50,138 nt of DNA from Rhizaria sp. SCN 62-66 (Eukaryota), in assembly GCA_001724265.1 (NCBI GenBank), contig MEDY01000231.1, forward strand, positions 1 through 50,138. The letters are read 5' to 3'. This document shows positions 1-50,138 of this stretch, piece by piece. The position numbers and the translations under genes are program-made. The notes beneath the pieces are model-generated. The model searched no databases, was not told where the DNA came from, and was given only the letters and a program-made list of their open reading frames with translations. Each line of letters opens with the position of its first letter. Within the stretch, counting starts at the first letter, position 1.

Positions 1-75
<75 letters not shown>
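1..75 (-). repeat. (CAG)n microsatellite of at least 25 units, encoding polyQ in the PFKFB frame
   Basis: Uninterrupted CTG x25 on the + strand from base 1, in frame with exon 2 and truncated by the window edge. Confidence 0.95.
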
Positions 76-76
<1 letters not shown>

Positions 77-1548: not shown

Positions 1549-2230
1549 AGGTCTATTGCGTCACTTAAGCAACGAGCAGAATAATATAGCAAAGTTTAAA
1601 AGCTAACAGCGTAAAACAGAACCAAAACAGTGAAAAGAAGTGGAAGAAATGTGATGTTAAGAGGCGAGGACGAGATTCACGAGACCCGGATCAGAGGAGG
1701 GCTTACTTATCGGGCGGGAGATGAGAAAGTTCGCAAAGGGCAAGCAGAAGAAAGAGACGTATAAGTGAAAACACTTAAAACTATCCAACGTCACAAGCCG
1801 AAGCAATCTGACGGACACCCCACAGGGATAAATGAGCTTTGCATTGACTGAGTCGACCATCTCTCGGTCACTGGTCCAACCAAGAAGTGACCGTGGGCAG
1901 CGGCCAGGTGACCGTGAGCAGCGGGTTTAAGGGCGGTCGAAGCCTCCTTGGGAGGCCCAGAAGGCCCTCTAAAGCGACGTCTAGGGCCCGCAGTCGTCAA
2001 GAGACGCACACTTAGTATCGATTTATTTAACATTCATGGGCTGGTTTATGTTGTGGTCATGTCTAGATTTGCTGAAGACCCTGATGTCCCCTGCTGAAAA
2101 ACGGGGGATGATGAGCACTCGACTCACAGTTGCCCAGTGCACCTCCTTCGCTTAACGACCTTTGTTCGACCCCACGCCATCGTCAGCCGCGCTTACCATT
2201 GCTCTCCGTTGTGTATTACTTCTTCTATAG

Positions 2231-13100: not shown

Positions 13101-14445
13101 CCAACCTAAGCACCAACATCACTAGCACCAGCAGCATATGCACATCACGATTGACTCCGCTGCGGCGAACCCGAACAGCAACAACAACAACAGCAAGAAC
13201 AAGTCTACTGTTGCTGTGACGAAGGACGCAGCACACGCAAGCTCTCGTGCGAAGCGCACCGCCGCCGCGTTTGCGGGCGACACTAGCAACGCCCGTCGCG
13301 GCGCTGATGCCAGTGACGACGACGATGATGATGACGACGACGACGACGACGATTTTTTCTCCGGCACGACGTTTGGCAACACCGATCTCGGCGATCCCAG
13401 CCACCTCTCTTTGCGCAGGGGCGGCAAGAACAGTGGCAAGAGCAGCGACAAGGGCGCAGCGCGCGTCGTCGACCTTAGCTCGGACTCCGACTCCGCGTAT
13501 GAGATCTACAGCCACCCGCCCTCGGCTGCAGCTGGCGCCCACGGTCACGCCCACGGTCACGGTCGTGGCGGCGGCAAGGCGACTGAGGTGGTGACGATCG
13601 ACGAGGACTCTGACTCCAACTCTGATGTCAAGGCCTCGGCCGCGAAGCGTGCAAACAGCGGCAAGGGCAAAGGCAAGGGCAGGAGCAGCAAGGACTCTGA
13701 GACCGAATACACCGGCAGCGACGACGACGACGACGACGATGACGCGAGTGACGCGTACGAAACCGATGACGACGACGACAACAGCGGGGGCAGGTGGCAC
13801 CACGAGTCCGACAGTGAAAGCGCCTACAGCGACGACGAGGACGATGACGACGATGACTACGACAGTTAGCTCCATGACTCTCGCAGCGGTGGCGGTCGTG
13901 ACGGCAGTCGCGGCGGCAGTCGCGGCGGCGCCCGCGGCGGCAGCAACAGCGGCTCCAGTCGCAACGCGTACCAGCAGCTGCCGCAGTACCAACACTATCA
14001 GCAGCAGCGCACCATCAACGGCATCGGCGGCGAGCGCCAAGGCCGGGCCCGCGGCGGCCACGGCAACGGCTACGGCGGGTATGACCGTAGTGACCGCAGT
14101 GACCGCGGCCGCGACCGCAGCCGCAGTGGGAGCTGCGGTCAGAACCAGAGCGGCAGCAACCGCGACGCGCGCGGGCAGAGTCGCGACGGCCGCGGAAACG
14201 GAAACGGAAACGGCAGCAGACAGCAACAGAGCCAGCCCGGTCAGGGCGGCAACCGCGCCCACAGTCGCGACCGCAGCCACAGTCGCGACCGTGGGCATGG
14301 GCACAGCAAGGCCGGCGAGGACTTTAGTGGCACCGGTGACGGCAAGCAGCGTAAGGGCAATGCGGGTCGGTCGGAGCAGGCACAGGCGCGGCGCAATCAG
14401 AAGAAGCAAAAGGCCAGTCGGGACAAGAAGTCACGCATGGGCTAA
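8833..14445 (+). CDS. TRF4: Non-canonical poly(A) polymerase, Trf4/PAPD5/TENT4-like; 1870 aa if TAG codons at 13123 and 13867 are read as sense
   Basis: Motifs LHEEVLDF, FGSSLTGLYLPRSDLDLV (GS + DxD), ARVPIAKF, IDVCIN, GGVGSF, NLGSLLLGFFSFY and LSIENP. ORF 8833-13125, ORF 13138-13869 and the downstream RGG/RS-rich segment share one frame, separated only by TAG. The frame ends with TAA 14443-14445 at the GC-to-AT boundary. Confidence 0.88.
12850..12969 (+). repeat. KKD tripeptide repeats (AAGAAGGAC-type units) in the Trf4 C-terminal region
   Basis: Translates to KKDKKDKKDKKDKKDKKDK...KKDKKDKKDKKD with synonymous variation between units. Confidence 0.85.
13123..13125 (+). other. In-frame TAG codon 1 (Trf4), context QQQNQPKHQHH*HQQHMH
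   Basis: CAC CAA CAT CAC TAG CAC CAG CAG CAT; the frame stays open to the next TAG at 13867. Confidence 0.8.
13867..13869 (+). other. In-frame TAG codon 2 (Trf4), context DDDDYDS*LHDSRSGG
   Basis: GAC AGT TAG CTC CAT GAC; 191 further sense codons follow before TAA at 14443. Confidence 0.75.
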
Positions 14446-22801: not shown

Positions 22802-24733
22802 TTACGGCTCCCACATGATGAGCGAAATCAATTTCTCTGCTGCCGCAGCTTCTATAATGTTGTTGTCGCAGCGGTAACCGCTATTGTCGTACACGATTAG
22901 TCCATACGGCGCAACAGGGTCTGCAGGCTGCCTCTGCACGCCACGGTGACCGTGAACAACGGCTCCCGAGCGCCCGAACGCGTCACCGCGGTGCCCGAAC
23001 CCCCCCGAGTTGCTGTGGCCGTGGACGTCCGTCACAGAGCTAGCTGCAACGCCAGCCGCAGCGTCGGCGTCGGTGGCGGCAAGCGCGCGCGCCGCGGCAA
23101 TGATGCCGTGCCTGCGGCCTGCGGTGGCCGCCGCGGCCGCTGCTGCAGCGGGCTTGGGCGCAAGCGAGTTCAACACCGCGGCCAGGTCATCGTCGTCGTT
23201 GCAATCATCGTTATCATCGCCCGCTCTAGCACGACTGCTAGTGCCGCTGAGGATGCTGCTGCTGCTGCTGCTGCTATTGCCGTAGCCGTAGCCGACGCGG
23301 GCAACAAGGGCGCGGCTACCGTCGCTGTCGCCCAGGGCCAGCGGGGCGCGCGGGCGCAGGCGCAGCGGCGGCGACGGCGGGCGCGCCTGCGTCCTGTGGA
23401 GGCCGGAGTTGTGCTCAATGATGCAAGCGCCGAAATCACTGCCACATGCGACTGCCAGTGCAGAGCTATGATCGCTGCTGCTAACGTTCACAAGACCGCC
23501 ACGGTTGTTTTCCAGCGCTAAATAACGGAGATTCGCAGCAGTGCCATTGCCATCACCGACGGTTGCTGCTGCCAACGCTGCCGCTGCGGTGATGTCCGCC
23601 GCCTGCCGTTGGTCGCGCTCGAAGGCGGCGCGCAGGCGGGCGCGAGTGCGGGCGATCTCCGCGTCGGATGCGGCCTGCCGCCATAGAGGCCGCCCGTCAG
23701 ACCGCTGCGTCGCTGCAGCCGGGGCGCGCGCGTGTGCGGGTGCTTGCGCGTGCGCGTGCGCCTGTGTGTGCTCGTGAATGTGCGCGTGCGCGGTTGCATG
23801 CCCTCCGCGGCTGCTCATGCTGTTCCTGTAGTTGTCATTTCTATCGGTGCGTGCGTCACTGCGACAGTGCGCGTTCGTGCGCGCGTAAACTTTGCGGTTT
23901 TCGGCTGTCGAATCGAAGTCTGAGTCGTCGGCAAGAGCACACGAGCGAGCAGACTGACTGGGCACAGGGGCGCGTGCGCTTGCGTTAGTCTGGGAGGCTG
24001 CCAGTGGAGTGGCGGGGCCATATGGCGTAGCTAACAATAGACCGTGATCGACAACCGGCTCGCTCTCAGGGGCAGCAACCGCTCGGCGAGTTGCAACATT
24101 ACGAAGACAAGTAGCAGCAGGACCGCTCATGTCGTCCGCCGCAACAGTCTTCGCAGACACAGCGCCGCGACCGGCACGGCCATTGCCTTCAACACCGGCG
24201 TCGCTGAAGCCTACACTGCAGTCGCTCGCACTAAAACTGTTTGTGCCGCCGATGGCGCGGGCGTGCGGGCGCACGACGGGCGGCAAGTCGTCTGGCGGCC
24301 GTGCAACTGGCGGCAATTCGGCGCCGTGCCGCTCGCGAGTTGGCGCGGCGAGCAGACCCGGAATGATGCGACATGACGGCACGGACGGCAGCGGGGCGGG
24401 ATGCACCGCGTTCGGTGCGGGTGCAGAGCGGATGGTGAGAGAGAGGTCGTGAGGAGCATATGGCGCTGCACGGGAAGCCATCACTGTGGCGACCTTAGCC
24501 TGTGCATCAGGGGAAGCAGTAGTTGGGAAGACCGTGTCTTGATGTGTCTTATAAACAGGAGTTTGAGCAGTAAGTTCGCGCGGTGAAATTGCGTCAATTG
24601 GGGAAGTGCTTGTGGGGATGTAGATCGGTGACTCGTTCGCTGAGGTGGGTTGGCTGCTGCGGATGAGACTGAGAGCATCGTGCAAGCTCAACGGTCGCTG
24701 CATGCTTTCAGAATCTACGTGGATAGCGCGCAT
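22802..24733 (-). CDS. Hypothetical low-complexity protein (about 640 aa); start uncertain
   Basis: Long ORF coinciding with a GC-rich block flanked by AT-rich DNA. Composition resembles the disordered regions of neighbouring genes; TAA stop; no recognisable domain. Confidence 0.6.
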   Translation of the reverse strand: MRAIHVDSESMQRPLSLHDALSLIRSSQPTSANESPIYIPTSTSPIDAISPRELTAQTPVYKTHQDTVFPTTASPDAQAKVATVMASRAAPYAPHDLSLTIRSAPAPNAVHPAPLPSVPSCRIIPGLLAAPTRERHGAELPPVARPPDDLPPVVRPHARAIGGTNSFSASDCSVGFSDAGVEGNGRAGRGAVSAKTVAADDMSGPAATCLRNVATRRAVAAPESEPVVDHGLLLATPYGPATPLAASQTNASARAPVPSQSARSCALADDSDFDSTAENRKVYARTNAHCRSDARTDRNDNYRNSMSSRGGHATAHAHIHEHTQAHAHAQAPAHARAPAAATQRSDGRPLWRQAASDAEIARTRARLRAAFERDQRQAADITAAAALAAATVGDGNGTAANLRYLALENNRGGLVNVSSSDHSSALAVACGSDFGACIIEHNSGLHRTQARPPSPPLRLRPRAPLALGDSDGSRALVARVGYGYGNSSSSSSSILSGTSSRARAGDDNDDCNDDDDLAAVLNSLAPKPAAAAAAAATAGRRHGIIAAARALAATDADAAAGVAASSVTDVHGHSNSGGFGHRGDAFGRSGAVVHGHRGVQRQPADPVAPYGLIVYDNSGYRCDNNIIEAAAAEKLISLIMWEP

Positions 24734-25841
24734 ACAAGAGAGAGTGCAATTATTATTAAAAACATGAAATTAAATATCTACGCATCATTCAACCATGTTA
24801 CATTTGTGCAATTTGACGGAGATTTTGTGCCTGGGCATCGAGTTTGAATGCGTCAATGTCATCCATGGCCAGCCATTGGTGACCATATGGTGAGCACCAC
24901 GCGTATTTCTCCTAGGCGGCGAAATGCGATACATCTCGTTGAGATCCGATGCAGTTTGACATTGTAAATGTAAGGACTACACCAATCTCGTGTATTATCA
25001 TTGTCCACGAACAGGATTCAAGCTCAATGAACAATAGTGTGTCCTTACACTGCAAAACGGCGCAGAGTGGCTTGGGCGTATCAGATTGATACAAAGTACA
25101 AAAAGGGGAAATACGAAATTTTTTTAAAAAAAAAGGCAGAATATTACAAACATGACATGCCAAAATATGTGACTACATAACACACATTATAATGAGAACC
25201 ACTGTACATCACTGAGTCCACAGTTGTACACAGTGGTGGATGCCCGAGAGCGGGTACATTAGCAATGTGCCCTGTCGCGTTGCATTGCATCATAACGAGC
25301 AATGACCAACGCCACAATAAAATAGCACTCGCCACAGACTCGACAAGGTGACTCCGGTCAATGTCATCTTGCATCAGCGACACGCCTCACGAGTCAAACA
25401 CCGACACTCACGCAAAAAAAAAAGCACAGATATGCGTCTACTGATCCCGTGTACAGGGAACAGGGGCTCGGACGCAATTAGGCGGCAAAATGATACTATT
25501 GTAATTAAAAAAAAAAAAAATTATCCATGATGGCCGATGGCAGCGGCAGTGAGAGCAAAACGAAGGTGCTTCATCACGATCACATCGTGGTCATGCGCCA
25601 GGCAGTCACTTTCACGAGCAGCGATAAAATCTTCATCGGCCATCCATGAAAAGCAAGCTAGCTAACACACAGATCGAAAGAGACAAATGAAAACACCAAC
25701 TGTTACAACACCAACGAGACAGAAAATGCCCCCAGCAAGAACACGATAGCGACATCAATGGTCCTAGCTTTAGACTCAGACTTAAGTTGCGGCAAGATTG
25801 AAGTGCTTCGCTCGAGCTACTTAGATCGAGTCGCCCAGTAC

Positions 25842-28800
25842 TTAGACGGTGGTTCCGCCCAGATAGTTCTCGTCTCCTTGCGCACCAAGCCCAAGTCCCA
25901 ACCCGAGCCCCAGCCCGAGCCCGAGCCCGTCCCCGTCGTCGTCCTCGTCGTCGTCGCCGTCGTCGTACAGTGCGCCGCCGTGGCCGCCGTGGCCGCCGTG
26001 GCCGGGAGACCCTGCAGCGCGCCCGTGGCCGCCCTTGAGCGCGCGCCTACTGCTGCTCACGTCGAGTCCCCCCTTGCGAGGAGCACGCTTCGCGCCGCCG
26101 CCCATCACGCCGACAACGCCCTGCGGCTACGACGGCGGCTGCGGCTGTGTTTGCACACTCACCTGCTGGCCGACAGCGCCGGCAGTGGCGCCAGCCCCGC
26201 TGCGCGCCGCAGCCACCTTGCTGCCCGCACCCGCCGCCGCAGCGGTGCCGACTGCCGCCGCGCCCGTCGCGGTGTCTCTCTCGTCGCCGTAGCCGTCGCC
26301 GTCATAGTCCTCGCCGTAGTCGCTACCCACGCTGCCGCCGCGGCCCCTACCCACGATCGCGCCGTGGTCGCTGCGGCGCTGGCCGCGAGCGAGGCCGAGG
26401 CCGCGGCGCGCGCTGCGGCGGCGGGCGCGGCAGATAGCCTTGACGTCCTTGACGACGAGGCGCACGATGAGCAGCGCGGCGACGCAGCACGACGCCATGA
26501 GCAGATAAAACACGTTGTCCCAGCCGCCCTTGCCGTCGTCGTCATCGCCACTGCTGCCACCCGAGCCGGCGACGAGCGCGACGAGGATGCCCTGCGTGGC
26601 GGCGCCCGCGGTGCCGAAGCCGTCGATGATGCCCGAGACGGCGGCGAGCGCGGTGGCGTCGTCGCCCAGGTCGGGGTGCGAGCCCAAGTCCGCCGAGACG
26701 GCCGTGGTGATGAGCGCGTAGGGCCCGTTGACCATGACGCCCAGCAGCGTCATGATGGCGATGGTGACGGGGACACCGCCCAGGTGCTCGGCCGTGACGG
26801 AGCGGAACACCAGCAGCACGGGAACCGTGAGCAGCAGCGCCGAGGAGCTGATGAGCGCGGGGCGGCCCGTCTTATCGCTGAGGTAGCCGACAACGACGCC
26901 GCCGACAATGCCGCCCACGTCGAACGTGGTCGACAGGTACCCCGCGACCGAAGACTGGTAGCCCGTCGACTCGAGGTAGTAGGGCAGCCAGAAGAGGAAC
27001 GTGTAGGCGACGAGCTTGGTGAAAAAAAGCGTGAACGAGTACTCGAGCACGCCCGGCAGCAGCAGCGCCGCGAGGAACGTCACGTTCTTCGCGGGGCCCT
27101 TGCCCTCAGCGCCGCCCGCGGCGGGAGACGCCGGCACCACGACCGTGTGCGCGGCGCCGTTGATGCTGGTGCTCATGCTCGCACTCGGACTCGCGGTGGC
27201 GGTCACGGGCACGCCCGTCGTCGAGGTGAAGGCGACAACGGCCTTGCCGTGGCCGCCGCGGCCGCGGTCGAGCGCCGCGGCCGCGTGATCGGCGAGCACG
27301 CGGGCCTCTTTGCTGCCGTAGCCGCGGCCCCCGCCCTCGACGCCGTCTTCCTCCTCCTCGTCCCCGTCCTCGTCCGCGCCCTCGCGGCCGCGGGGGCTGT
27401 TTGTTCTAGCGCGCGCGCCGTAGTTGTGCACGGGCGAGCCCCCCGCGCTGCGGACCACGCTCGCGCCGGAGTGACGCGCGCGGCCCAGCGTCTTGGCCTG
27501 GGTCTTGCCGCGCCCGCTGCCGTTGCAGTTGCTGTTGTCCGCGGGCGCGGACGCGGGCAGCGAGGCGGCGTCGAGGTCGGCGCCCAGCGCGTCGATGTCG
27601 GTCGCGCTCGCGGGCAGCGCGTGTCCCCCGCCGAGTTCCTGTGCGAGCGCGCGGTCGATCTTGCCCTGCGCCTCCTCGGGCGTGGGCGTCAGCGCCAGGA
27701 GCGTGACCGCGGCCGTGAGCACCGAGACGAGGGCGGGGAAGGCGAAGGCGTACACCCATCCAGGGGTGCCGGAGGCCGCGGTGGGCTTGGCGCCGAGCGA
27801 GAGCGCCGAGGTTGCGATGACAACGCCCAGCACGTTGCCGATGCTTGTGTGCGCGTTCCAGACCCCCATCACGCAGCCGCGGCTGCCCTTGGCGAACCAG
27901 TTGGACATGACGGCCACGACCGCGGGCCAGCCAGACGCCTGCATGAGCCCCGTGAAGACGTTAGCGACGGCGTAGTAGGCGAAGGCGTGGATGTCGAGGA
28001 CAAAGCCCAGCGGCCACATCGCGAGCCCGACGCCGACACCGAGCAGCCCGAGCGCGAGGAACAGCCTCAGGTCCGAGCGGTCGGCGATGTGGCCCGCGCC
28101 GAAGAGCCCCACGGCATAGGACGCGAGGAAGAGCGTGTCGAGCAGCCCCAGCAGGCGCTTGCCCGCCGCGCCCACGAAGGGCTCCCAGTTCAGCGCGGCG
28201 TCGGCGTCGGCGCCGTCGGGCACGAAGGCCGACTTGACGATCGAGTAAGGCCGGCGCGTAACGTGATAGACGGCGTACTGCAGGAAGGTAACGAGCCACG
28301 CCAGCAGCTGGTAGCGGCGGTAGTGGCGCGCGAACGCCTGGTCAGACTCAAGCCGCGCCGCGATCGCGGCCGTCGCGGCCGACGTCACTGGCGGTGCCGT
28401 CAGCGAGGGCGCGGCGGCCGAGTCGAAGCCCAGGCGGTTGTCGTCGTCCTTGTCCTTGGCGTCGCCGTCGCCAGCGTCGTCGTTATAGCCAGTCGCGTTG
28501 CTGTATCTGTCGCCGTTGCTGTTGCTGTGGGTAAGGCGCGGACTACTCGAGGCCGCGGCCGCAGCTGCAGTGGCCGCAGTTGCGCTGTTAGGAAAAGCGG
28601 GCACAACAGCGCGGCGCTGCTTCGCGCTGCTCGAGCTGTTAGCGCCAGCCCCGACACTGGCACGCTTGTGCTCCTCCTTGTTTTGCCCATACACACCATT
28701 GCTGTGAACATCATCGTGTTCGTGCTCGTGGTCAAGCTCGTGGGTCGCAACGCGGCCGGCGCTGCGGTGCCCGGCCGCGCTACCGATGCCGTCGCCGCCG

Positions 28801-31040: not shown

Positions 31041-34000
31041 TTAGCTGCCGGTGCTCTTGGTGATATGTCTCCACGCAGAGAAACGTAGCGCAAAGTACGC
31101 CAAAATGCGGACGCCAATCATGAGGCCAATAACCGCAAAAGCGTTTCCGGCGTAGTGGCTGCCGCTGAGTGAAAATAGGTGCATGACATCGCTGCCGTTG
31201 ACCATGGGACAGAACTGCTCCATCGTGCCGTCGTCGAGTGGCACCGTGATGTACTCGTGAGGGTCGCAGCCAAGCTCGAGTCCGTTGAACTCGACTCCCA
31301 TCACGGACTCGAACATGAACTTCTGTGGTGACAGGACCTGAAGCCACTTGAGCCAGCCTACGCACCATGCAAATAAAAAAAAGTGAATACAGATATAATT
31401 GTGAGGAATTGACGTGCGTTAGCGTAAACCCAGTATATGCTAAGTAGCTTTGCATTTCACAACGTATGTGTGACTGAGCTTAAAAAATTTTGTCTTAAAG
31501 AGAGCATATACACAATCAACTGAGTATTACTTGTGCATCCTTACCTGGCATCGTCTCGTTATGTGCAAAGAATCCCGTGACCATCATAAACGGCACCATA
31601 ACAATTGGCGACAGCATGAGCGCTACCGTGCGATACGGCACGAGCGCACCAACAATGAGTGCGTACGAGTGCGTGGCCTGTCCGGTGAGGATCAGCGCAA
31701 AGATGTAGCCGACAAACTTGTTCATGTCGCCCTGAAGTCCGACCATGGGATACGCAAAGGCGCCGAAGATAATCGCAAGCACGGTCTGCAGTGCCATATC
31801 AACAAAAGTGCGCCCCAGGAAGTATGCCGACGTCGAGTAGATGTGCTTCTGCTTTTCGCGCAAGAAAAGCGCGCGCTCCTCTGTAAACGTGAGCACAGCG
31901 GCAACAATAGTGATAAACGCCTGGATCGACGTCATAAAGAACAGAAACCCCACGCGTGCGTACACACTTTGCTGCTTGTTGCCAGTCTGAAAAAAGAGCA
32001 GCCCGACAAAGACTGACAGGAACACGTTGACGGCCACACGCATGACTGTGTTCATCGGCTGGCGGATCACATGCAGAAACGTGCGGTGTGACAAGTGCTT
32101 AAGCTGGTGCTTAAACGCGAGCTGCGGCACGCCCGGAGTGATGTGCTCCGTGCCGCCTGCCCCGGCCTCACGGTCAAGGTGGATTCCGTAGGCGCCCTCT
32201 AGCCCCGCTACAGTAGACGCTGAGTTGCAAAACTCGCCCGGCGCCCCCAAGCCCGCGGCGCCGCCAACACCACCACTGGCGCCCGCACCGCCGGCGCCGC
32301 CGCGGCCGTCCTCGTGGTGGCTAGCGCGCAGGCGCGGAATGTAGTTTGTCAAAAACGGCGTTAAACGAGGGTCGCGCGGCACAGGCCGCATGAGGTACTG
32401 CTCGGCAACTAAGTTAAGCCGTGTGTCCTCGCGCGATGCAATGATGCGCTTTATTGCCATGCTTGACAGCGATGTGAACGGGTAACGGGCTTTGCGAAGT
32501 GCGAGAAGACCATTAACAGTCTTTTTAGCGGCGCTATTACCGTCTGCATTGTCGTTCTCGTCCTCCTCGTTAATGCTGCTTGAGTTCACTAAAGCTGCTT
32601 CCGTGACTACGCTGCTCTTGATGCGCAACTTCGACTTAATCAGCTCAACAGACTTGTGCCGCGGGTCGTGCGGCGACAGCGCGGTGGCCGTGCCCTTCTG
32701 CTCCGCGACAATGAGATCGCGCAGCATGTCGGTTGAGTTCTGCTGCAGCACGTTGAGAAAGAACTCGGCCGGGTTTGCCGACGCCGGGCAGTTGTAGCCG
32801 AGCCCAGTGAAGTAGTCAAGCGCGCGCGGCGCGGGGCCGAAGTACGCGAGCTTGCCGCGCGACAGCAGCACGAGTGTGTCGAACATGTCGAAGATCTTGG
32901 TGTTGGGCGAGTGAATTGTGAAAATGACTGTACGACCAGTGCGCACAAGGTCCTTAAGCACCTTCATCACCTTGACAGCGGTCGTCGAGTCCAGGCCGGA
33001 CGTCGGCTCGTCGAGAAACAGGATCGCGGGATCGCGGATCATCTCGACGCCGACCGACACGCGCCGCCGCTGGCCGCCAGAGATGCCGCGCACAAACGCA
33101 GTGCCAATGGGCGTGTCAGCGCAGTCGAGCAGATCAAGCTGCTTCAGAATGCGTTCCACACGCTTCATCTTGCGCTCCTCGCCAATGGCCTCGGGCAGTT
33201 GCATTTTGGCCGCAAAGCGCAGGGTCTCGCGCGGCGTTAGCGTGCCCAGCAAGACGTCTTCCTGCAAGTCTCGGTGTTGCGTAGCAAATAAATAAGAGTT
33301 AAGGGAGAGCTGTAAGTGCGTACACAAAAATTAAGTTTTACGAATAACGTCATTTCATCGGTAACTTGATCACACTTTTGGTCATGCGTACCTGCATCAC
33401 GTATCCTGTAAGCGAGCCTAACTCCGTCTCCGACACGCGCGTGCCGTTGAGCAGCACATTGCCTGTCGAAATTCCGTGTTTTTTTAGGTACTCCTCCTCA
33501 TTGCCCCTGCCACCAGCTCCGCCAATGCCGTTAGTAGCCGCGCCGTCCTCGTCTTCATCAGACCACGCCCCGCCGCCTGCGGCAGCTGTGCTGCTGGCAG
33601 CGGCCGCGGCCCCAGGCTTGCGCTTGCGCATGTCCGTCGGTTTGAGCTGGATGCGGCCCGAAAGCGCGTTGAGCAGCGTCGTTTTGCCCGCGCCGGACGC
33701 GCCCATAATGGCGACCATGCGCCCGGGCTCGATGACGCCGCTAAGCCCGTCAAGAATTGTTTGCGGCACGTTCTCCATCGCCTCACGGTTGCACATCCAG
33801 CTCAGCGCCGGGCACGCCGAGCCGCGGCCGCCAGAGTCGTCCGCGCCGCCGTCGGCGTCGTCGTCGTCATCCTCGTCCCAGCGCCCGATCGGCGCGGCAA
33901 AGTCGTCGACGGCGTCGTGGCCGTGACCGTGGGCATTACTGCTGCTGATTGTGCCGTTTGTGCTGTTCTTGTCCCAGCGGCGCGCACCGCTGTCGTGGCC

Positions 34001-37000
34001 AACTGCAAGAAGGCTTGGTGTGTCAGGAGTAGCAAACGCGCTTGCAGCAGCACGATAACGCGCGGCAGCGCTTGGTTTTGCACCAGCGCCAGTACCAACA
34101 GTAGCGGCGCTAGCGCCTGAGCGGCCCTTACCCCTGTTAGTGCTTGTACCGTTCGTGGTAGCTTGCTCTTGCACGCTAAGCTCGTGAGTAACACTCTCGC
34201 GCCCGCGGTTTTTTGGAAGGCGTTTGATGACGCGCACTGAAACGTTGCGGAATTCAATTCGCGTTGGCTCTTTGACACTCCAGCGCTCTACTTCCTGCGG
34301 CACCGTGTGCATCTGCGCGTACTTGGCCGCCAACTCATGCACGTCGACATGCCTGCGCACGCTCACGTCGCTATTGTCCGCCCAGTCGGGCGCAGTGGCG
34401 ACGGGCGTAATCGCAGCAGCCGCAGCGCGCGCGGCGGCAACCTCGGCAGCGGCCTCGGCGGCGGCGACGGCAGCGGCAACGGCACGGTCGGTCGCCTCGC
34501 GCTCCTCAGCTTCGCGGCGCAGCTTGACCTTGAGATACTGCTCACCGGCATCGCTCTTGTCGCCATCGCTGCCAGCGTCGTCGTCAGTGCGACTCACAAT
34601 CTTGTCGCTGCCGTTTCCGTCAACATCCGTGTCGCTGTCGCTGAGCGCATTGGCGTGGCGCCGGGTCTTTGCGCTTGGCTTTTCGCTGCCAGCGCTTAAC
34701 TTGGCAGCAGCAGCTGCAGCCGCAGTGACTGGCTTCTTGACGGCGAGCGCAGTGTTATTTTTTGTTCCGTGGGAGTTAGTGTTGTAGCGCTCGTCGTCGC
34801 TTGTTAGCTCAACGTCGCTGCGGAGAGACCGTGAGCGTGACCGCGAGCGCGACTGCGGGTGTGCGCGTTGTGACTTTGTTGTAATGCTATTAGCAACAGC
34901 AGGCGTTGGGCGCACAGTGCAAGACGCAGGGGAGCCAAGCGAGAACTCAACTTTGTCACCAACCTTGACATCAACAGCATTGGTTGTAGAGTCGATGTTT
35001 GCGCTAAGGGCAGCGGCAAGGTCTTCTGCCGCAACCATGCTGCCGGTGCGCCCGCGCTGCTGTTGCCTTTGCTTTGATCCGGCCTTGGTCGTCTTGGTGG
35101 CAGCGTAGCTCGGCGACGCAATAGAAGCAAACGCGCTTGCGCGCGACTTGGGGCTCAAGTCAGAGACGTTGCTGCTGCCGCGGACAATGCGAGTGGCACT
35201 GTCCATAGCACCTTCTTCTTCGTCATAGTCGTCTACATCCTCTTTAGTGTTCACTGTGTTTGCACAAGAGTTCTTCGCAGCAGTAGTTGACAATCCATCA
35301 CTTTTGACGTCTTTGCTACTAACAGCGCTCGCAATGGCGTTGCTCTTGCTCTTGCTTGTGATGTTGCTCTTGCTGTTTAACGCAACGCGGCTTGAGACTA
35401 ACGCAACTGCTTCGCTTGCAAGCTCCTGCTGCTTTTGCTTTCCGGTGTCGCCAGTCCTGAGTCCGGGTGTCGCGACTGCAGGTCCGGTGCAACTTGGCAG
35501 AGCACGAGTTGACGTAGAAGCCAAGGTGGAGGCCGGTGCGGAGGACAGGGCTGAGGTGGAAGCTGTGGCTGCAACCGCCGCGGTCGCAGCCGCGCGCTCT
35601 CTCTCGGCCACAGCCGCAGCAACGGCGTCACGCGCCCTTGCCACCGCATCAGGCGTCTTTGAGGGTGCCGCAACAGCAGCCGCACTTGCGACAGCGGGAG
35701 TAAGGCGCGTGCTTGCAGGAATAGCGGTAACATTGGCGGTGGCAGCGCGGGTTACAGCGGCGGTATTAGTGGTTGTGACAGCCATGGGATCCGCAAAGAC
35801 GTCGTCGTCTTCCTCGCTCGCGCCGTCTCCGCGGGTGTTCTGTTGCTCGAGCTGTTGCTTGAGGCGGTACTGCTCAGCGGCCGCAGCCTTTGCCGCTGCG
35901 CGTTGCGCGTGCTTAAGCTGCTTCTTGATGCGCTTGGAATTGACAGCAGCTGCAGCTGTACCGGCACCAGCAGTGTAGACCGCGTTTGGCGAGTCTGCGT
36001 CAGATTCCGATGCAGTGCTGGCCTTGACACTCTTGTCAGTGCTGTTGTCAAAAACTGGAATGGCTGTTACGGAGGGGCGCGTCGACAAACCTGGCATCAC
36101 CGCCAGCCCGCCGAGCGCGGGTCCCGTTGTATTCACTGTCACTGGCAGAGGCGCCGGCATTGCAACTGCGCCGAGGCCCAAGCCCAGGCCAAGACCGGCG
36201 GCTCCTGGTGGCGCGTAGAAGGACGGGGGTACAGCGCTGTAGCCGCCGCTTCCAACGCCCACAGCCGCGACCGCGGGTTGGCCCAACGCAAGCGCGATCT
36301 GCGTGGGCGTCGCGCCGCGGCTGACGCTGCCGCCCGCGCTGGCGCTATTGCCCGCGGCCATGTGGCCGTGGCCGTGTGCGAGTGAGGCGGCGAGCGGCTG
36401 CGGGTACGCAAGGCTGCTGCTGCCGTGCGCGTGGCTGTGCGCGGCGCTGGCCGGCCGGCTGAGCGCGGCGGGAGCAAGGGACATGGCCGCACCGGTAGCA
36501 AGGCTGAGGCTATCGCTATGTCCGTGGCGCGACGGCTGCTGCTGCTGATGGTGCTGCTGCGGGAAAGTCAGCACGTTGTTGTTGCCGTGGCTGAGGCTGC
36601 TGCTTTGGCTGACAGGGCGCGCCGCAAGGTGGCCGTGGGCAATGACAGGCAGTGCAGTCGCGTGAGCCAGCGACGGCGGCAGCGAGTCGCCTGACTGCAG
36701 TGGGAAAGCTACTGCGGGTGCGGCTGTGCCATACCCAAGAACAGCTTGAGTACCTGCGGCAGTCACGGGAACTGGTGGTGTTGGAGGCGAAGCAGCAATG
36801 TTATTATTGCCCAAAATGTTCGCGCTGAGCGCAGATAAGTCATGCGCAAACGCACTTGACGGCCGCCTCTGCTGTGCGTTGATGTTTCCAACCACGGCAA
36901 GCGGCAGCGCGAACTGAGGCGGCTGCTGCTGACGCGTGTTGCTGGTGGCGCGCGGAGACGACGGCGCCGATACAGAGCCGACGCCGCCAGCGCCGTCGCC

Positions 37001-37600
37001 GCCGTGTCCGTGGCCATGGCTGCCGGTACGGCTGTGCGCGCGTGTGCGGCTGTGCGCAAGTGACGGCGGGCCGGCGTGGGCGCTACCGACGACGACAGCA
37101 GCGCCGCTGCTGATGATACTGGTGTCGTTGGTGGCGTAGTCGGCTGTGTAGCCGTACACAGCTGAGTTACCGAGCGCAGCGGAGTGACCGTGAGCGGAGC
37201 CAGGCATTGAGTGCCGATAACTTAAATCGGTTGCGCTAGTGCCAGTGATAACACCCGCGCTGGCGTTGGTGCTGACGCCTGCGTTCGCAAGGAGCAACGA
37301 CTGCTTGTCGGCAAACGGCAGCCCCGCAGCGGGAGCAGGAGTCGCTGAGCGAGATGCGATGTGCATGTTGTACAAATCGGTCGCTGATGCAGAGGACGAA
37401 GACGAGGACGCGGGCGAGCCGGGCCGGGAAACAGCGCCTGCGTTGTTAGCGCCGCTCGCAGTGTTGCCGTTAGTTGCGGAGCTGCCCGTGATGCTGGAGA
37501 AGGCGGGGGTCGGCCCGCCGCCGCCGTGCATTGTAGAGCCCTGGCGACGGTGGCGGTTGCTTGCAGCAGCCGCAGCCGGCGCAGAAGCGGAGGGGTCCAT
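31041..37600 (-). CDS. ABCG (White-family) half-transporter A with a very long disordered N-terminus, exons 37600-33392, 33261-31545, 31357-31041
   Basis: Walker A GASGAGKT, Q-loop GYVMQ|ED, signature ISGGQRRRVS, Walker B LFLDEPTSGLD, TIHSP, NPAEF and a C-terminal TMD. Introns 33391-33262 and 31544-31358 preserve frame; TAA stop. Confidence 0.93.
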
Positions 37601-38416
37601 AGCGCGCGTCTCGGCGGAGCAGTCCGATTGACGCGTTATGCACTGAGACTGAAGAGCGCTGAAAGCAGACCTGAAGAGGGGCTGTCAAGGAAGATCTGAA
37701 GCACGTTCAACGCGTTAGCGTAAGGATATTATTGTGAGTCGTTGTTGTAGACTACAATCAACTTAAAAATGTGGGAAAACAATGATTTTTTTTTAAGATA
37801 GGCAAGATATGAGTCGACACAAATGAGGAAAAACGAGGAGTAGTGGGAGTTGTTGCAGGACGATCGCGGATCGTTTGAAAGAGTCGATACACAATAAAAA
37901 CATATGTCTCTCAAAGTTATATGCTGGTAAAAGATAAACACAACAAAGACATAACGTTTCTATGAGGTATAACTTGAAAATCACACAAGTATATGATGAA
38001 CATCTCGATTTTTTTCGGTGTAGGTCAGGCTCGCAGGCAGATTTTTTGCCTCACCGCTATTGCTTCCGTGCCCCTCGTGCTCACAGTCGACATTTGAAGC
38101 TAAGCCACCCAGGCACACAAAGGAGCAGCAGCAACAACGTCTTCAAGTCACTCAACTTCAAATCCATCTTCTACTTCACAGCTCCGTTGTAACGCTCTTT
38201 CTTGCAACTTGAACAAAATTATGTTCGGTAATGCACCCCAACAAAATGTTGCTTTCTCACATGCTGCCTACATTGCCCCGCCCTGGTCACTTCTAATTCC
38301 CATGCTTCAAGTTGTTCTTAACCTTAGCGCAGCCTCTTCTTTCTCCCTTTATACCTACAACGGCTGCTTCCTGGTGAACAGCGCGCGTTGCTGCTGCCAC
38401 TGTTCCTGAATCCGCA

Positions 38417-40101
38417 ATGCCAACGCTGTCCTTTCACAGCATCACCGTTTCGGTGCCCGACATCAAAGGTGCGCGCCGCTATCTCCCCGCCGCATGCGTC
38501 TCCAACGCCAACCGGCGCGAAGTATTGCACTCAATCTCTGGCAAGTTCCCTCAAAAGGGCATCGTCGCAATCATGGGCCCGTCCGGCTCCGGCAAGACCA
38601 CGTTCCTCAACGCCGTGAGCAACCGCATGGCAATCGGCGGCTCCAGCGGCGTCAAGTGCTCCGGTGCTGTGCGCGTCAACGGGCGCGAGGTCGACCCCGA
38701 GTTCTTTTACTCCAAGTCCGTCTCGTTCGTCCCGCAGGACACGTGTCTCTTCGCAGAGCTCACGCCGCGCGAGGCTATCCGCTTCTCTACCACGCTGGTC
38801 TACCCCACGATGTCGGCGCCCGCAGTGGAGGCCAACGTCAACAGCACGCTCGCCGCGATGGGGCTCGGCAAGTGCGCGGACACGCCGGTCGGAAACGAGA
38901 TGTTCCGCGGCGTCTCGGGAGGCGAGCGCAAACGGTACGAACACACGTTTGATTAAAAAAAGCACTCCATTGGGATTGCAGCTTAATGCCTTTGAAGTGA
39001 CTTGAAGTCTGACATGCTCGCTTGACACGTCGCTTTACATGTACTGCAACATCCTGTGACTGATTGCAGCAACTTGAAACCAATATTACTTAAATGGCGC
39101 AGGTGTGAGCAGACACATCTACAAACAAGCTAACAGATCTGATTTGTGAACTGTTCTTGCATATGTTCTAGCACGAGTATCGGCGTCAACATTGTTAACA
39201 ACCCGTCGGTGCTGTTCCTTGATGAGCCAACCACAGGTCTCGATAGTACGTCACTTTGTTCTTACGCGCAAACTTAAAGTTCGAGCTTGAATATCTGAAT
39301 ATACATCTTATATGCATCCTGTATTGCTTTGACTCTCCTTGTAGCCGAGACTGCCGCGATGGTTGTTCGTTCGATTCAGAACATCTCCGGCTCCCGCCCC
39401 TCCACGAACGCAAGTTCGAGCTCGAGCTCGAGCTCGGGTTCCAGTTCCAGCTCCAGCTCAATCACCTCAACCGCCCCGCCGTCGTCCGCCGCGTCCACGG
39501 CTGACTCTGAGGAGGACGGCCGCATCGTGATCATGACCCTGCACCAGCCGTCGTCGGACATCTGGGACATGATCGACCACCTCGTCATCCTGGCGCAGGG
39601 CTACGTTGTCTACAACGGGCCCGCCAAGGACGCCATGGACTTTTTTGTCTCCATTGGCTTCCGTCGGCCCACACACATCAACCCCGCGGACTACTTCCTC
39701 GACATCGTGCAGTGCGAGGAAGACGACGACGACGCCAGCGCCGCCTCAGCCTCCGTCGCTGCGGCGGCGGCGGTGCCGCAGATGCCTGCGCTGCCCGGTT
39801 CCTCGGCTGCGGCTACGGCAGCGGCGGCGGCGGCGGCCAGCGCGGCGGTTGTTGCGCGCACCAAGGGCTCCAAGAAGCAGCGCGCGAAGTTTCTCGCGAC
39901 TGCGTGGCGTCACCACGAGAAGCTGCGCCGTGCGCCGCCCCCGATCCCCAGCAGCAACAACAACAACATCAGCAGCAGCACTGGGGCTGGGATTGGTTCT
40001 GCCACCTTGAGTGTTACCAGCGCTGCGGCGCCGGGGCGCGGGGCGGCAAGCGTGGGTGCACTGATGGGCTGGGACAACGGCCGCAGCGGCAACGCCGTCA
40101 C

Positions 40102-40132
<31 letters not shown>

Positions 40133-41740
40133 GCTGTCGGTGGTGGCAGCGTGACCAACGTCGTGAAGGACGCGCGCAGGGCCAAGCTCGAGGAGATGGT
40201 GCGTAAGTACAACGAGCGCATGCAGCAGCAAGCCGAGGACAACGGCGACGCGCTCGACGAGGAAGAGGACGACGGGGGATACGGCTATGATGAAGCGGCG
40301 TACGTCAACACAGCGTTTTTCGGAGATATCTCGCTTGTTTCTTGAATAGTTTAAACAATATTCCGCAAATGTAAAAACTATTTATTTTTACATTTGAATC
40401 TATTATTTGTTTTTAAATTTTAAAATATCTCTCAAATTCTGAAACGTTGATTTGATTTCTGGCGATCTAAAAAAATATCGGCCGAAATTAACTTTCATCA
40501 CTATCTTCTCACATCTTGACATGATGACTTGTTTTGCGCGTTCACAGTGCTCCCAATGGCTCATCGTTAGCCCCTTACGGCAGCGCCTTGTCTACCCCGG
40601 CGCAGGCGGTGAAGGGCACGTGGAGCCACGAGCTCAAGACGCTCACCGCGCGGTCCTGGAAGACGTTCTCGCGCACTCGGTACGTAGGCGCTGAGAGTGA
40701 ACCAGCGCTGTAACATTTGAGCCCAGTGCGCCTTTGCCTTGAGTGAAAAAATCCACTGAATTACTGAGAGCTCTATTTGTGCACATTTGTGAGCTTATGC
40801 AACTTGAAAAACTTGATTCTCACACTTACACTTTGACGCCAATTCTTGTTTTCACCACAGCCTGATGATCCCAATGAAGCTGGTGCAGATCTTCATCACC
40901 GCTGTGCTTATTATCGGGCTTTTTTCCCCATTTGGCTTCGACCAGATCTCGGTGCTGAACCGCACGGGCTGCATGTACCTCGTCATCATCGTCCAGATCT
41001 TCGCCACTGTGCTCTCCGTCGTCATGCTGTTCCCAGCGGAGCGCGGCGTCTACCTCAACGAGCAAGCGCAGCGACTGTACTCGGTGTCGTCTTACTTTGT
41101 TAGCAAGCTCATCATTGACCTGCCAATCCTTACCCTGACCATCTTTGGCTTCTGCCTGCTGGTGTACTTCCCCGTCGGCTTCCAGAGCGACTTCGCACGC
41201 TTCCTGCGCTTCTTCTTCGTGCTCGAGGGCGTCGCCATCTGCGGCCACGCCATGGGGCTTATTGTCGCCGCCTGCGTTGCCTCCCCCGCCATTGCCGCCC
41301 TGCTCGCCCCCATGGCCATCGCGCCGTTTATTCTCTTCTCGCACATCGCCATCCCCGGCGACCCTGACGCCAAGATCATCGGCATCCTGCGCCCGTTCCA
41401 GATATTTTCCCCCTTCTGGTGGGGGCTTGACGCGCTGGCCGTAACAGAGTTTGCGGGGCTCAAGCTGCACTGCACCGACGACCAGGTGTACGCCGTGCCC
41501 TCAGTCGAGCACGGGCTGCTTTACATGTGTCGCTTCGTGTTGGGAGAGGAAGTCCTAATGAGCTACAGCATCCACCTGGGCGCCTTCGCGCCCTCGCTCG
41601 TGTACCTGTTCCTAATTGCCACCATGCACGTCGTCATGTCGGGCGTGCTGCTCAAGGTACTCTCGCTGCGCGTCGCTAAGTGCGTGCCGATGGAGCCGCC
41701 GCAGGCCGCCGTCAGCGCGCCGCGCCTCGTGCGCAAGTGA
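38417..41740 (+). CDS. ABCG (White-family) half-transporter B, exons 38417-38934, 39172-39245, 39345-40299, 40548-40679, 40861-41740
   Basis: Walker A GPSGSGKT, FVPQD, VSGGERKR|TS, LFLDEPTTGLD, TLHQP, NPADY and a TMD with FPAERGVYLNE. Four GTACG-AG introns with consistent phases; TGA stop. Confidence 0.93.
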
Positions 41741-47432: not shown

Positions 47433-49890
47433 TCAGTCCCACTTCGTGCTGCGCTCCTTGTCAGCGTAATGCTTGGCCCAGTAGGCCTCCCAGAAGCGCG
47501 CGCGGTACGGCGCCGCGGCCGTGGGCGCCGCCGCCGAGGGCGGGTGGAACCAGTAGTTGACCGCCATGTGGCCCGGGCCGGCCGGACTGGCGGCGGCCTC
47601 GCTCTCGGAAGCACTCGCCGCCGCAGGCACAGGTGCAGGCGCGGTCACAGTCTCGGCCGCGCTGTTCGGGTTGCCGCCGGCGCCAGAGCCAGCGCTAGCG
47701 CTGGGGGAGCAAGAGGTGACTTCGTGAAACCAGCCGGCGGGGAGGTACAGCGCCTCACCGGGGGTCATGTACACCACACCTAGAGCGTCGTCAAGTCGTG
47801 GAGAGGCGGACATGAACGCACAGATTGGAGAGAAAACGATAAGAGAAGAACATCAAGAAAACAAGAAATAAGCAGACAGTCATATCACAATATGCTGCGA
47901 TTCAGGTAGATATGCGACAATACGTCGCTTTAGGAAGCGTGTTTCGATGATATAGTGCGTACCCTTGTTGGCCTCGAGAAAGTCTGCATACTCTTCTTTC
48001 CACTCAGGCTTCATTCCGAACACGTCATCGAGCGTGATGACGTCGTCAAGTTCCTCCTCCTCCTCGTCCGCCGCCACCGCAGTGGTAGACTGGAGCTTGC
48101 GGGCGACCTCACGCACAAGCATCTTGGCCGACGTCGCAGGAGCCTGCGCCAGCAGCAGCGCGCGCGGGATGCCAGAGAAGTGCGGGAAGATGTGCGACTT
48201 CTTGGTCTCGTCGGCGCCGGCGTCGGCCTTGGCCTTGGCCGCCGCCTGCTTGGCCTTGGCCTTGGCGCTCGCGCTCGCCTTGACGGCCGCGCGCTTGCCA
48301 GTCGCAGGCCCGTCCTCCGCGTCATCGTCATCGTCATCGCCATCGTCGGCGTCGGCGTCAGCGTCGGCGTTGGCGTCGGCGTCGGCGTCGGAGGCGGGGT
48401 CGGCGCCGTCCAGTCCGTCACCGTCAGTGTCGTCGCCGGAGTCCATGTCCACGATGTCGCTACACAATCCGACGGAGTGAAGAGTTTACAGTGAAAATCA
48501 AAGTGAAAAAGATAACGAAAGCAACAGGTATTAATTAGAAATGATATTATTGCACATCTTGAACTTGATTTCAACTCGTTAAGAGAACAGTTACAGTTGA
48601 AGAATGACGTATGATTCGACGTACGCATACTCCATCTCGAGATCCATCGACAAATCAATCGCGGCCTCCATATCGCTCTCCAGGGCCTCCTTCTCCGCCC
48701 GGGCCTTCCCCGCGCCCTCGGCGTCCCCGGCGGCATCGCTCTGCGCAATCTCCGCGTCGTGCGCGGCAACGGCGAGCTCGAGGCGGCGGACCTCCTTCTT
48801 GAGAAAGCGCTTGAGGATGGGCGCGGGCACGCCCTCGGGTGTGATGGCGCGATTAGACGAGTAAACCAGCACACCCGTCGGGTGAACGCGTGACACCAGG
48901 CCTGCGAGGGGAGGAAGAACGCGCGATTACAGAAAAAACGCATCGCAAGAGAACTTCGTGAGTTTGATTGAAATGCATTTGATTACACGGAATTTTAAGA
49001 GGTACGTTAAATATAAATTGAATACAGCTATAAAGCGAATGTCGGCAAGCGTACCTCGCGTGTGCATCTTGCCCGCGTCCCTGGGCGAGAAGATCTGGAA
49101 GCGCTTCGCGCCGCGCAACAGCAGGTAGAGGTTGTCGTGGAAGTCGTGGTGCAGCCCACTCGACGCGCCGTCCTTGGCCTGGCCCAGCCACACGTTGAGC
49201 TGGTACGGCACCAGCGGGGCGAAGAGTCGCGGGCGCAGCGGGAAGTCGTCCGCGAGGCGCGTGAGCGGGGAGGCGAGCAGCGCTGGCAGGTCCGAGCCCT
49301 CGTAGTCCTCGGTCTGGCTGGTCAGGTAGTAGAACGGGCAGTTGTTCTCGACGTGCGTCAGCAAGTCCTGGAAACGCATCGGGATGCGTGGGGCCGACTC
49401 GCCAAAAAAGCTCTGTGAAAAGGGCACATATATAACGTAATATTACGAAATGGTGAGATGAGGTCAGAGAGAAAGCATCGATAGAAGATGAAGACCAAGT
49501 GAGAAAACGGACGTGAGCTGAAGCGAGCGACGACATGTACATAGGATGAGCGCAAGAGAAAAGCAATAACGCGTTGTCGCTATGTACCTTAGTAGATGTG
49601 CGTTGCTCGACCTGCACGGTGGCGCCTCCGGCAACGGTCTTGAGGTAGTCGTTGCTCCATTTGGCGAAGTTGCAGAAGTCTGGCGACTGGAGCGTGTTAA
49701 GCAGGATGCACGGCTTGCGCTGCGCCACATAGTCGTTGAAAAACGCCTAGGGGGTCGTCTGAAGCACGTCCACGCGGTCAATTGACCAGGTGGAGGACGG
49801 AATGGTGAAACCCTTGTAGGAGCGAGCCACATCGGCCTTCTTGGGCTTCTTCGTCCGCAGCGGCTGCGCTGCGCCAGCACTGCGCTTCAT
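47433..49890 (-). CDS. JmjC/cupin-8 Fe(II)/2-oxoglutarate dioxygenase, exons 49890-49588 (contains an in-frame TAG), 49412-49055, 48901-48625 (or 48631), 48459-47963, 47779-47433
   Basis: YKGF...IDRVD...TP*AFFNDYVAQRKPCIL, KWSNDYL, YYLTSQ, NVWLG, SSGLHHDFHDNLY..LRGAKRF, LYLPAGWFHEV and HMAVNYWFHPP. The HxD...H triad is intact. Four frame-preserving introns; TGA stop. Confidence 0.92.
49747..49749 (-). other. In-frame TAG codon 4 (JmjC codon 48), context IDRVDVLQTTP*AFFNDYV
   Basis: ACG ACC CCC TAG GCG TTT TTC, 47 codons downstream of ATG 49890 and inside the conserved cupin-8 N-terminal block. Confidence 0.85.
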
Positions 49891-50138
49891 GGTGCTATTG
49901 TGGCACATTAACCATTATTTGAAGGATACAAAAAGAGAAAAATATACGAATGTAAATATTAGATATGATATTACAAGTGCAGTACTATTGACGATGGATT
50001 CATAGAAAATGCGGTATTTGTCTTCGCAAGCACGCCGCTCCATCACACGGGGGTCGCGAATTGGGCCGTTTGCCTCTCCCACCCCACATGTTTGTGATGT
50101 TGAGGCACCCCCCATCCCCAATAAACATCCCTAGATTA

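Follow-up and report, generated by a model that had tools for sequence, protein, structure and literature searches.

We analysed a stretch of 50,138 nucleotides (contig MEDY01000231.1 of assembly GCA_001724265.1, referred to below as the window), in which a putative JmjC-type oxygenase gene of the Cupin_8 family carries an in-frame TAG at codon 48. In the eukaryote to which this DNA belongs, UAG is probably a rare sense codon, most likely read as glutamine (Gln), with UAA and UGA serving as stops. In the window, each of the four in-frame TAGs has the properties of a sense codon, and no gene terminates at TAG; CAG is converted into TAG by a single transition. If UAG is read as sense in this eukaryote, it follows that the JmjC gene would be a normal, functional gene in which codon 48 is read through and the protein is made.

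An in-frame TAG in an otherwise intact JmjC gene

The JmjC gene lies on the minus strand and is described here by a five-exon model that was obtained after two splice junctions had been corrected. Its frame opens with an ATG at 49890-49888 and contains the TAG (49747..49749; read as 49749-49747) as codon 48. Exon 1 (49588..49890) comprises 101 codons (phase 0), and its residues 47-98 correspond to positions 1-56 of the Cupin_8 model. Downstream of the TAG, exon 1 has no methionine codon up to its last base at 49588, where the donor GTACAT comes next. Both the in-frame TAG within 49890-49588 and the lack of a later in-frame ATG had been put forward in the preliminary description, whose translation is identical to ours. 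A second possible start is the in-frame ATG at 49906..49908, six codons upstream of 49890 (MCHNST-MKRS...), at which the public open reading frame (ORF) calls P0216 and P0351 begin. This upstream ATG may be the real start, in which case the TAG would be codon 54.

Intron 1 (49413..49587; 175 nt, GTACAT...CACAG, GC 0.44) is followed by exon 2 (49055..49412), which codes for the core of the Cupin_8 domain including the LHHDFHDN motif (HxD). Intron 2 (48902..49054; 153 nt, GTACGC...CGCAG) has a TAA in frame at 48929 and leads to exon 3 (48625..48901), placed by the splice model, and to intron 3 (48460..48624; 165 nt, GTACGT...TGTAG). Exon 4 (47963..48459) encodes an acidic low-complexity insert and a HIFPHFSGIP motif. 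It is separated by intron 4 (47780..47962; 183 nt, GTACGC...CTCTAG) from exon 5 (47433..47779), which carries GWFHEV with the second His ligand and ends with the terminal TGA at 47435-47433. All four introns thus have the form GTAC...YAG, with lengths of 153-183 nt and a GC content of 0.35-0.44. According to the splice model the coding sequence measures 1782 nt and 593 codons, with one TAG (codon 48) and the terminal TGA as codon 594.

The AT-rich introns of the gene (47780-49587) contrast with its exons, where the GC content at third codon positions (GC3) is about 0.8; across the window, GC content sets exons apart from introns and intergenic DNA. A (GACGCC)n-type repeat at 48277-48440 (minus strand) encodes a (D-A)n tract in exon 4. 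This repeat draws many foreign contigs and is the source of all 'joints' in the comparison of sequencing runs, which are not splice events.

Against Pfam PF13621 (Cupin_8; cut-off 27.4 bits) exons 1, 2 and 5 score 22.5, 54.1 and 38.7 bits, respectively. LHHDFHDN (exon 2) and GWFHEV (exon 5) are both present, and the same columns are nearly invariant among the homologues of alignment A1 (see below). In this family the residues concerned serve as the Fe(II) ligands HxD...H. Residues 27-591 of the spliced product align to a homologue of 582 amino acids (P0003). By its sequence, the gene is intact apart from the TAG and is a member of the Cupin_8/JmjC-only oxygenases. This agrees with the preliminary description, in which the downstream exons, the splice sites and the HxD/H ligands were all considered intact.

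Among solved structures, sequence matches are restricted to JMJD7 and one fly protein, all of them weak. JMJD7, a JmjC-only 2-oxoglutarate oxygenase (PDB 5nfn and 4qu2), is the best match of exon 2 and has the Cupin_8 fold with HxD...H. The sequence match is weak however (E 7e-5, 26 bits), and the protein described here, with 593 amino acids, differs by a long acidic or coiled insert between the halves of the barrel. Orthologues of the JmjC gene come mostly from protists and algae.

Conservation across the TAG column

To read the residue that homologues carry at the position of the TAG, 111 proteins were collected via exon 2 and 114 were compared with exon 1, in which an X took the place of the TAG. 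Of these, 85 matched exon 1 and 78 cover the TAG column; the alignments span approximately residues 14-101 and show no gap at the TAG. Glutamate (Glu) is found in 33 of the 78 and Gln in 11. The set was enlarged with 142 HMMER hits from an exhaustive search with exon 1, giving 249 distinct sequences of which 217 matched; 208 of them cover the TAG column, and 195 cover at least 10 residues on each side. The distribution over the 208 sequences is as follows: E 82, Q 36, K 23, R 23, A 10, D 7, S 5, L 5, H 5, V 3, G 2, I 2, gap 2, and W, N and T 1 each.

The residues that flank the TAG, P47 and F50, are invariant in A1 (a MAFFT alignment of 14 rows), and G27, part of the motif Y-x-G-[FW]-T-[IV]-P further upstream, is nearly so. 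By homology, the TAG sits inside continuous conserved coding sequence. The preliminary description had placed it in the conserved N-terminal block of Cupin_8, at a polar, Glu-like column, and had proposed an alignment of homologues as the check. The Pfam match starts at residue 47, next to the TAG, and Glu is the commonest and Gln the second most common residue of the column, so both the placement and the expected type of residue are borne out. The accompanying preference for Gln or Glu over leucine (Leu) or tryptophan is supported as well (82 and 36 against 5 and 1 of 208), with the caveat that the closest homologue, P0001, has Leu. A start codon downstream of the TAG was considered and rejected: no methionine is available before exon 2, and the invariant residues P47-E95 would be lost.

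The TAG in DNA and RNA assemblies

The TAG is not a sequencing or assembly error. A DNA contig of run X1 spans 48362-50013 at a depth of 41, carries the TAG and differs from the window at one position only (49983). A second DNA contig, from a different study and year (X4), spans 49468-49820 and carries the TAG with zero differences. Moreover, four contigs are on record with a 53-residue ORF ending at the TAG (P0351; its sequence is identical to that of the window). A K26R variant (P0216; codon 26 corresponds to 49813-49815, minus strand) lies on a fifth contig, where the ORF ends at the same stop, which means that two alleles share the stop. Contigs of both DNA runs and the second allele therefore exclude the base-call error that the preliminary description had considered as an explanation.

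In a polyA metatranscriptome (X6), a 246-nt contig over 49665-49910 matches the window without any difference, the TAG being unspliced and unedited, though the depth is only 2-3. X6 also covers exons 4 and 5 together with 86 nt of intron 4; at this depth and partial cover no splice joints are seen at the introns of the JmjC gene. Given the intron 4 sequence and the lack of intron joints, the X6 reads may stem from DNA or pre-mRNA. A further run, X7, is probably DNA.

Behaviour of the stop codons in the window

Three other in-frame TAGs occur in the window. Two belong to a Cid1-type poly(A) polymerase gene on the plus strand: the TAG at 13123..13125 comes close behind a run of 14 Gln and lies in a Gln/His-rich tract (HQHH[TAG]HQQH), and the one at 13867..13869 (DDYDS[TAG]LHDS) is followed by an ORF that continues to the TAA at 14443. 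The remaining one is located in the tail of a gene for a transporter of the major facilitator superfamily (MFS; 26127..26129, minus strand; QTQPQPPS[TAG]PQGV), where the ORF stays open for about 95 codons up to a TAA at the boundary between GC-rich and AT-rich sequence. All three are found in low-complexity tails, and beyond each of them a coding-like composition runs on to the TAA; the poly(A) polymerase and MFS ORFs both terminate at a TAA right where the sequence becomes AT-rich.

Genuine gene ends look different. In the window 15 TAA/TGA ends were evaluated (8 TAA and 7 TGA, covering 14 genes, with one end uncertain), using a codon log-odds coding model trained on 4,663 codons of domain-bearing ORFs in the window. 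After these ends GC3 drops to 0.28-0.66 and the score over 50 codons lies between -5.2 and -33.2, against a GC3 of 0.74-0.82 and a score of +9.6 to +29.0 after the four in-frame TAGs. The numbers of open codons that follow the four TAGs are 298, 248, 192 and 95. The next base differs as well, being C at 3 of these 4 TAGs and at only 2 of the 15 true stops. TAG is the end of none of the 14 genes, although this is a small sample and the ORFs are bounded by TAA or TGA. In the other 12 genes no in-frame TAG was found between the end of the high-scoring coding segment and the final TAA or TGA. A TAG occurs within a terminal ORF in one case only (UbiA, 43024), and that TAG is the acceptor of an intron on the 5' side of the ORF.

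A symmetric test was applied to every stop codon that has 50 stop-free codons on both sides (n=146: 77 TGA, 43 TAG and 26 TAA). Six TAGs, one TAA and no TGA have coding scores of 5 or more both upstream and downstream; at a threshold of 10 these numbers are three, one and zero, and at 15 they are two, zero and zero. The TAG of the JmjC gene tops all 146 stops (22.8 upstream, 29.0 downstream). The six TAGs that score at least 5 include the candidates at 49749, 13867 and 13123. The only TAA to pass the two-sided test (1 of 26) is the one in JmjC intron 2, and TGA never does (0 of 77). UAA and UGA still terminate. This statement is based on the symmetric test and on the behaviour after each codon, which together form the non-circular evidence on stops.

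Weighing the evidence for UAG as a sense codon

Considering the four sites together, Gln would be the residue that fits best, whereas Glu would fit the JmjC site only. Taken by itself the JmjC column favours Glu, followed by Gln. The contexts HQHH[TAG]HQQH and QPQPPS[TAG]PQ, as sequences, fit Gln. With just four sites at hand, Glu, Leu or serine (Ser) are possible too, Leu because the nearest homologue carries it at this column.

The decoder would be a tRNA with anticodon CUA, which reads UAG but not UAA; this anticodon is to be expected since UAA stays a stop. Its simplest origin would be a mutated copy of a tRNA-Gln(CUG) gene, and the CUA tRNA would operate alongside an eRF1 with weakened recognition of UAG.

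Several observations weigh against UAG being a sense codon. Just four sites back it, only one of which is in a conserved domain; the other three are those in low-complexity tails, of which two might, in principle, be genuine terminators. P0001, the closest homologue (67% identity in exon 2), has Leu in the TAG column, though the model of this protein begins just two residues upstream of the column and may be truncated. The symmetric test is not entirely clean: the remaining TAGs with a score of at least 5 are located in an AT-rich intron (16749) and in antisense frames of the MFS gene (26719 and 28815), and the TAG at 26129 is under the threshold (3.9 upstream, 9.6 downstream). No tRNA(CUA) was detected within the 50-kb window, either with ARAGORN or with Rfam (0 matches on the whole window), and the window does not include an eRF1 gene. 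The X6 contig over the TAG is weak RNA evidence and shows neither splicing nor expression. Codon usage is the last of these points. In 11,406 in-frame codons of high-scoring segments we counted 4 TAG, 308 CAG and 49 CAA, with 52 TTG against 400 CTG. As a neutral synonym of CAG with the first-position bias of TTG/CTG, TAG would be expected about 40 times, so that the observed number is roughly ten-fold lower; the zero in-frame TAA and TGA in the same tally is circular, because the ORFs are cut at TAA and TGA. The ten-fold under-use is in keeping with recent reassignment, with an inefficient decoder or with readthrough that is only partial.

Alongside these searches, ARAGORN reported a 102-nt tRNA-Gly(GCC) at 27209-27310 (plus strand), inside the MFS coding region on the opposite strand. 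Rfam does not find it and it is probably false.

Alternative explanations

The JmjC gene might be a young pseudogene or a null allele, with its TAG a nonsense mutation and the TAGs at 13123 and in the MFS gene ordinary terminators in front of a GC-rich, open 3' untranslated region. In-frame TAG is indeed rare (4 of 11,406 codons), two TAG terminators among 14 genes would represent ordinary stop usage, and at a GC3 of about 0.8 nonsense mutations most often yield TAG (from CAG, GAG, AAG, TCG, TAC, TTG or TGG); also, no spliced transcript is seen in the RNA run X6 at its depth of 2-3. Nevertheless, a second lesion is absent from 593 codons and 8 splice sites, and the stop is common to two alleles that differ by the conservative K26R. 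Furthermore, past the putative terminators 248+192 and 95 codons are open with a GC3 of 0.74-0.82 and positive coding scores, and these frames close at a TAA where the AT-rich sequence begins, whereas composition drops immediately after all 15 TAA/TGA ends. Overall we consider this explanation improbable.

No better placed is the explanation that UAG is a leaky stop, where eRF1 still terminates and a near-cognate tRNA such as tRNA-Gln(CUG) reads through with low or moderate efficiency, which a few genes tolerate, without any dedicated tRNA(CUA). A C directly after a stop codon makes for a leaky context, and C is the next base at 3 of the 4 in-frame TAGs, against 2 of the 15 true stops. TAG is also used roughly ten times less than would be expected of a neutral synonym. 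Were UAG a working stop, it would be unexpected that TAG terminates none of the 14 genes of the window, and at codon 48 of a conserved enzyme a leaky TAG would cost most of the protein output. Readthrough by near-cognate tRNA-Gln as such is reported in the abstract of PMC13192750. In view of both sides this mechanism, too, has a low probability.

Removal or alteration of the TAG in the mRNA is clearly less probable still, be it through use as a 3' acceptor (CCCTAG|GCG), a small intron or U-to-C editing. Pairing of the CCCTAG acceptor with a GTACTG donor 239 nt upstream would be possible, and other introns of the JmjC gene end in CTAG or GTAG. Such an intron would however remove the ATG plus the conserved Y-K-G-F-T-I-P ... 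I-D-R-V block. The donor in question is the only GTAC donor in reach; the length of the resulting 239-nt intron is not a multiple of three, and the intron would link the upstream ORF in the wrong frame. As the homologues are ungapped at the TAG column, excision would also create a deletion between the invariant P47 and F50. In addition the X6 contig (49665-49910) has the TAG unchanged and unspliced, which is a weak argument as carry-over of DNA is possible. The use of the TAG as an acceptor, which the preliminary description had mentioned as a way in which its interpretation could fail, is thus not borne out: the conserved block would be deleted and the frame broken.

An error in the sequence or assembly of the window has a negligible probability, as the X1 and X4 DNA contigs from different studies and years have the same letters, the ORF ends at the TAG on five contigs in two allelic forms, and no points in favour of such an error were found.

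Two further candidates were discarded. An origin from a giant virus was set aside on account of the spliceosomal introns and the cellular housekeeping genes. Insertion of pyrrolysine or selenocysteine at UAG is rejected since neither is known at this codon in eukaryotes.

Comparison with known variant codes

According to two publications (PMC11687900, PMC5304391), reassignment of UAG alone is documented for Iotanema spirale (Gln), for Protocruzia tuzeti and some phyllopharyngean ciliates (Gln or Leu), for the rhizarian exLh (Leu) and for Scotinosphaera (Ser). The same sources list an uncultured ciliate with UAA as lysine and UAG as Glu, and UAR (UAA and UAG) as Gln in Amoeboaphelidium, oxymonads, hexamitids, ulvophytes and many ciliates. 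A tRNA with CUA anticodon in combination with weakened UAG recognition by eRF1 has been argued for both Iotanema spirale and exLh (PMC5304391, section 9).

The closest counterpart is Iotanema spirale, a fornicate in which UAG is Gln and UAA and UGA are stops: the pattern of the code, the best-fitting residue (Gln) and the predicted CUA decoder are the same (PMC5304391). Unlike Iotanema, the genome analysed here has GC-rich exons, spliceosomal introns of 150-185 nt with GTAC donors, and in-frame TAGs that are very rare. It also has genes of an aerobic mitochondrion, namely those for a ribosomal protein L1 of the mitochondrial type and for a UbiA prenyltransferase. The latter we take to be COQ2-like; mitochondria of this kind are not known from Fornicata.

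With a GC content of about 0.6, a multi-gene contig of 50 kb and long introns, the present sequence does not look ciliate-like. Protocruzia tuzeti and some phyllopharyngean ciliates nonetheless share the UAG-only Gln pattern, which arose repeatedly and independently (PMC11687900). In exLh (UAG as Leu) and Scotinosphaera (UAG as Ser) UAG is likewise decoupled from UAA (PMC5304391 and PMC11687900). At the JmjC column, however, Leu and Ser are each found in 5 of the 208 sequences versus 36 for Gln and 82 for Glu, and the Gln/His- and Gln/Pro-rich contexts of other TAGs favour Gln. Amoeboaphelidium protococcarum is another non-ciliate heterotrophic eukaryote with a stop-to-Gln reassignment (PMC5304391 and PMC11687900). 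There UAA and UAG are both Gln, whereas in our window TAA ends 7 or 8 genes.

The pattern matches the known Iotanema type of variant code, and the organism appears to be a new bearer from an apparently undescribed lineage. Full-text literature searches (supplements excluded) did not turn up any eukaryote from wastewater or activated sludge described as having a reassigned UAG.

Gene content, relatives and occurrence

Pfam identifies 13 of the 15 genes of the window and gives no match for those at 2265-4055 and 22805-24769. Several studies have runs from bioreactors, wastewater and activated sludge in which the stretch recurs. The closest relatives of the JmjC and PFK2 genes have identities of 59-71%, and the named hits disagree, pointing to stramenopiles and green algae for JmjC and to Amoebozoa, chytrids and animals for PFK2. 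The PFK2/FBPase gene (1-1560, minus strand) runs off the window, and its closest relatives are 62-71% identical. A quick tree of PFK2 groups the window with P0116 and P0117 (Shimodaira-Hasegawa-like approximate likelihood ratio test, SH-aLRT, 100), outside the sampled Amoebozoa, fungi and Holozoa.

Among the best 80 of 226 relatives obtained by searching metagenome contigs with exon 2, the top identity is 59% and there is no close second copy of the TAG codon. A search with exon 1 for longer homologous proteins produced 164 candidates, none of them significant.

Two ABCG-type half-transporter genes are arranged head to head (31044-37684, minus strand, and 38378-41737, plus strand). The one on the minus strand has an N-terminal ORF of about 1,300 codons ahead of the ABC domain, for which no Pfam match exists; comparison of an ABCG exon with a protein atlas confirmed the family only. 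At the end of the window (50045-50138) depth rises about 20- to 60-fold, to 783-2481 versus 41 in X1 and to 108-342 versus about 4 in X4. This jump indicates that the last 90 nt are a high-copy repeat or are shared with other organisms.

Conclusions

On balance, we favour the picture of an intron-rich and GC-rich wastewater or bioreactor eukaryote that independently made UAG a codon for Gln and was caught at an early or constrained stage. UAG would then be gone from gene ends and yet be used about ten-fold below its neutral CAG synonym, a part of the picture to which we give the same guarded preference.

Departures from the standard nuclear code are known in few eukaryotic lineages, and codes in which UAG and UAA have different meanings are rarer still, as stated in PMC5304391 and PMC11687900. 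For annotation the choice of code has direct consequences: calling genes with the standard code truncates proteins of this organism (the public ORFs of the JmjC gene end at 53 residues), hence the right code is needed for metagenomic eukaryotes of this kind. If UAG is indeed a sense codon here, this would be a further independent case bearing on the frequency and route of UAG capture, and one from a non-ciliate with ordinary introns and aerobic mitochondria that is recurrent in wastewater metagenomes. Where a reassignment is recent, TAG is expected to be used very little and to be missing from gene ends, as is the case here, and the organism would offer an intermediate stage, occurring in nature, on which the capture of stop codons could be tested.

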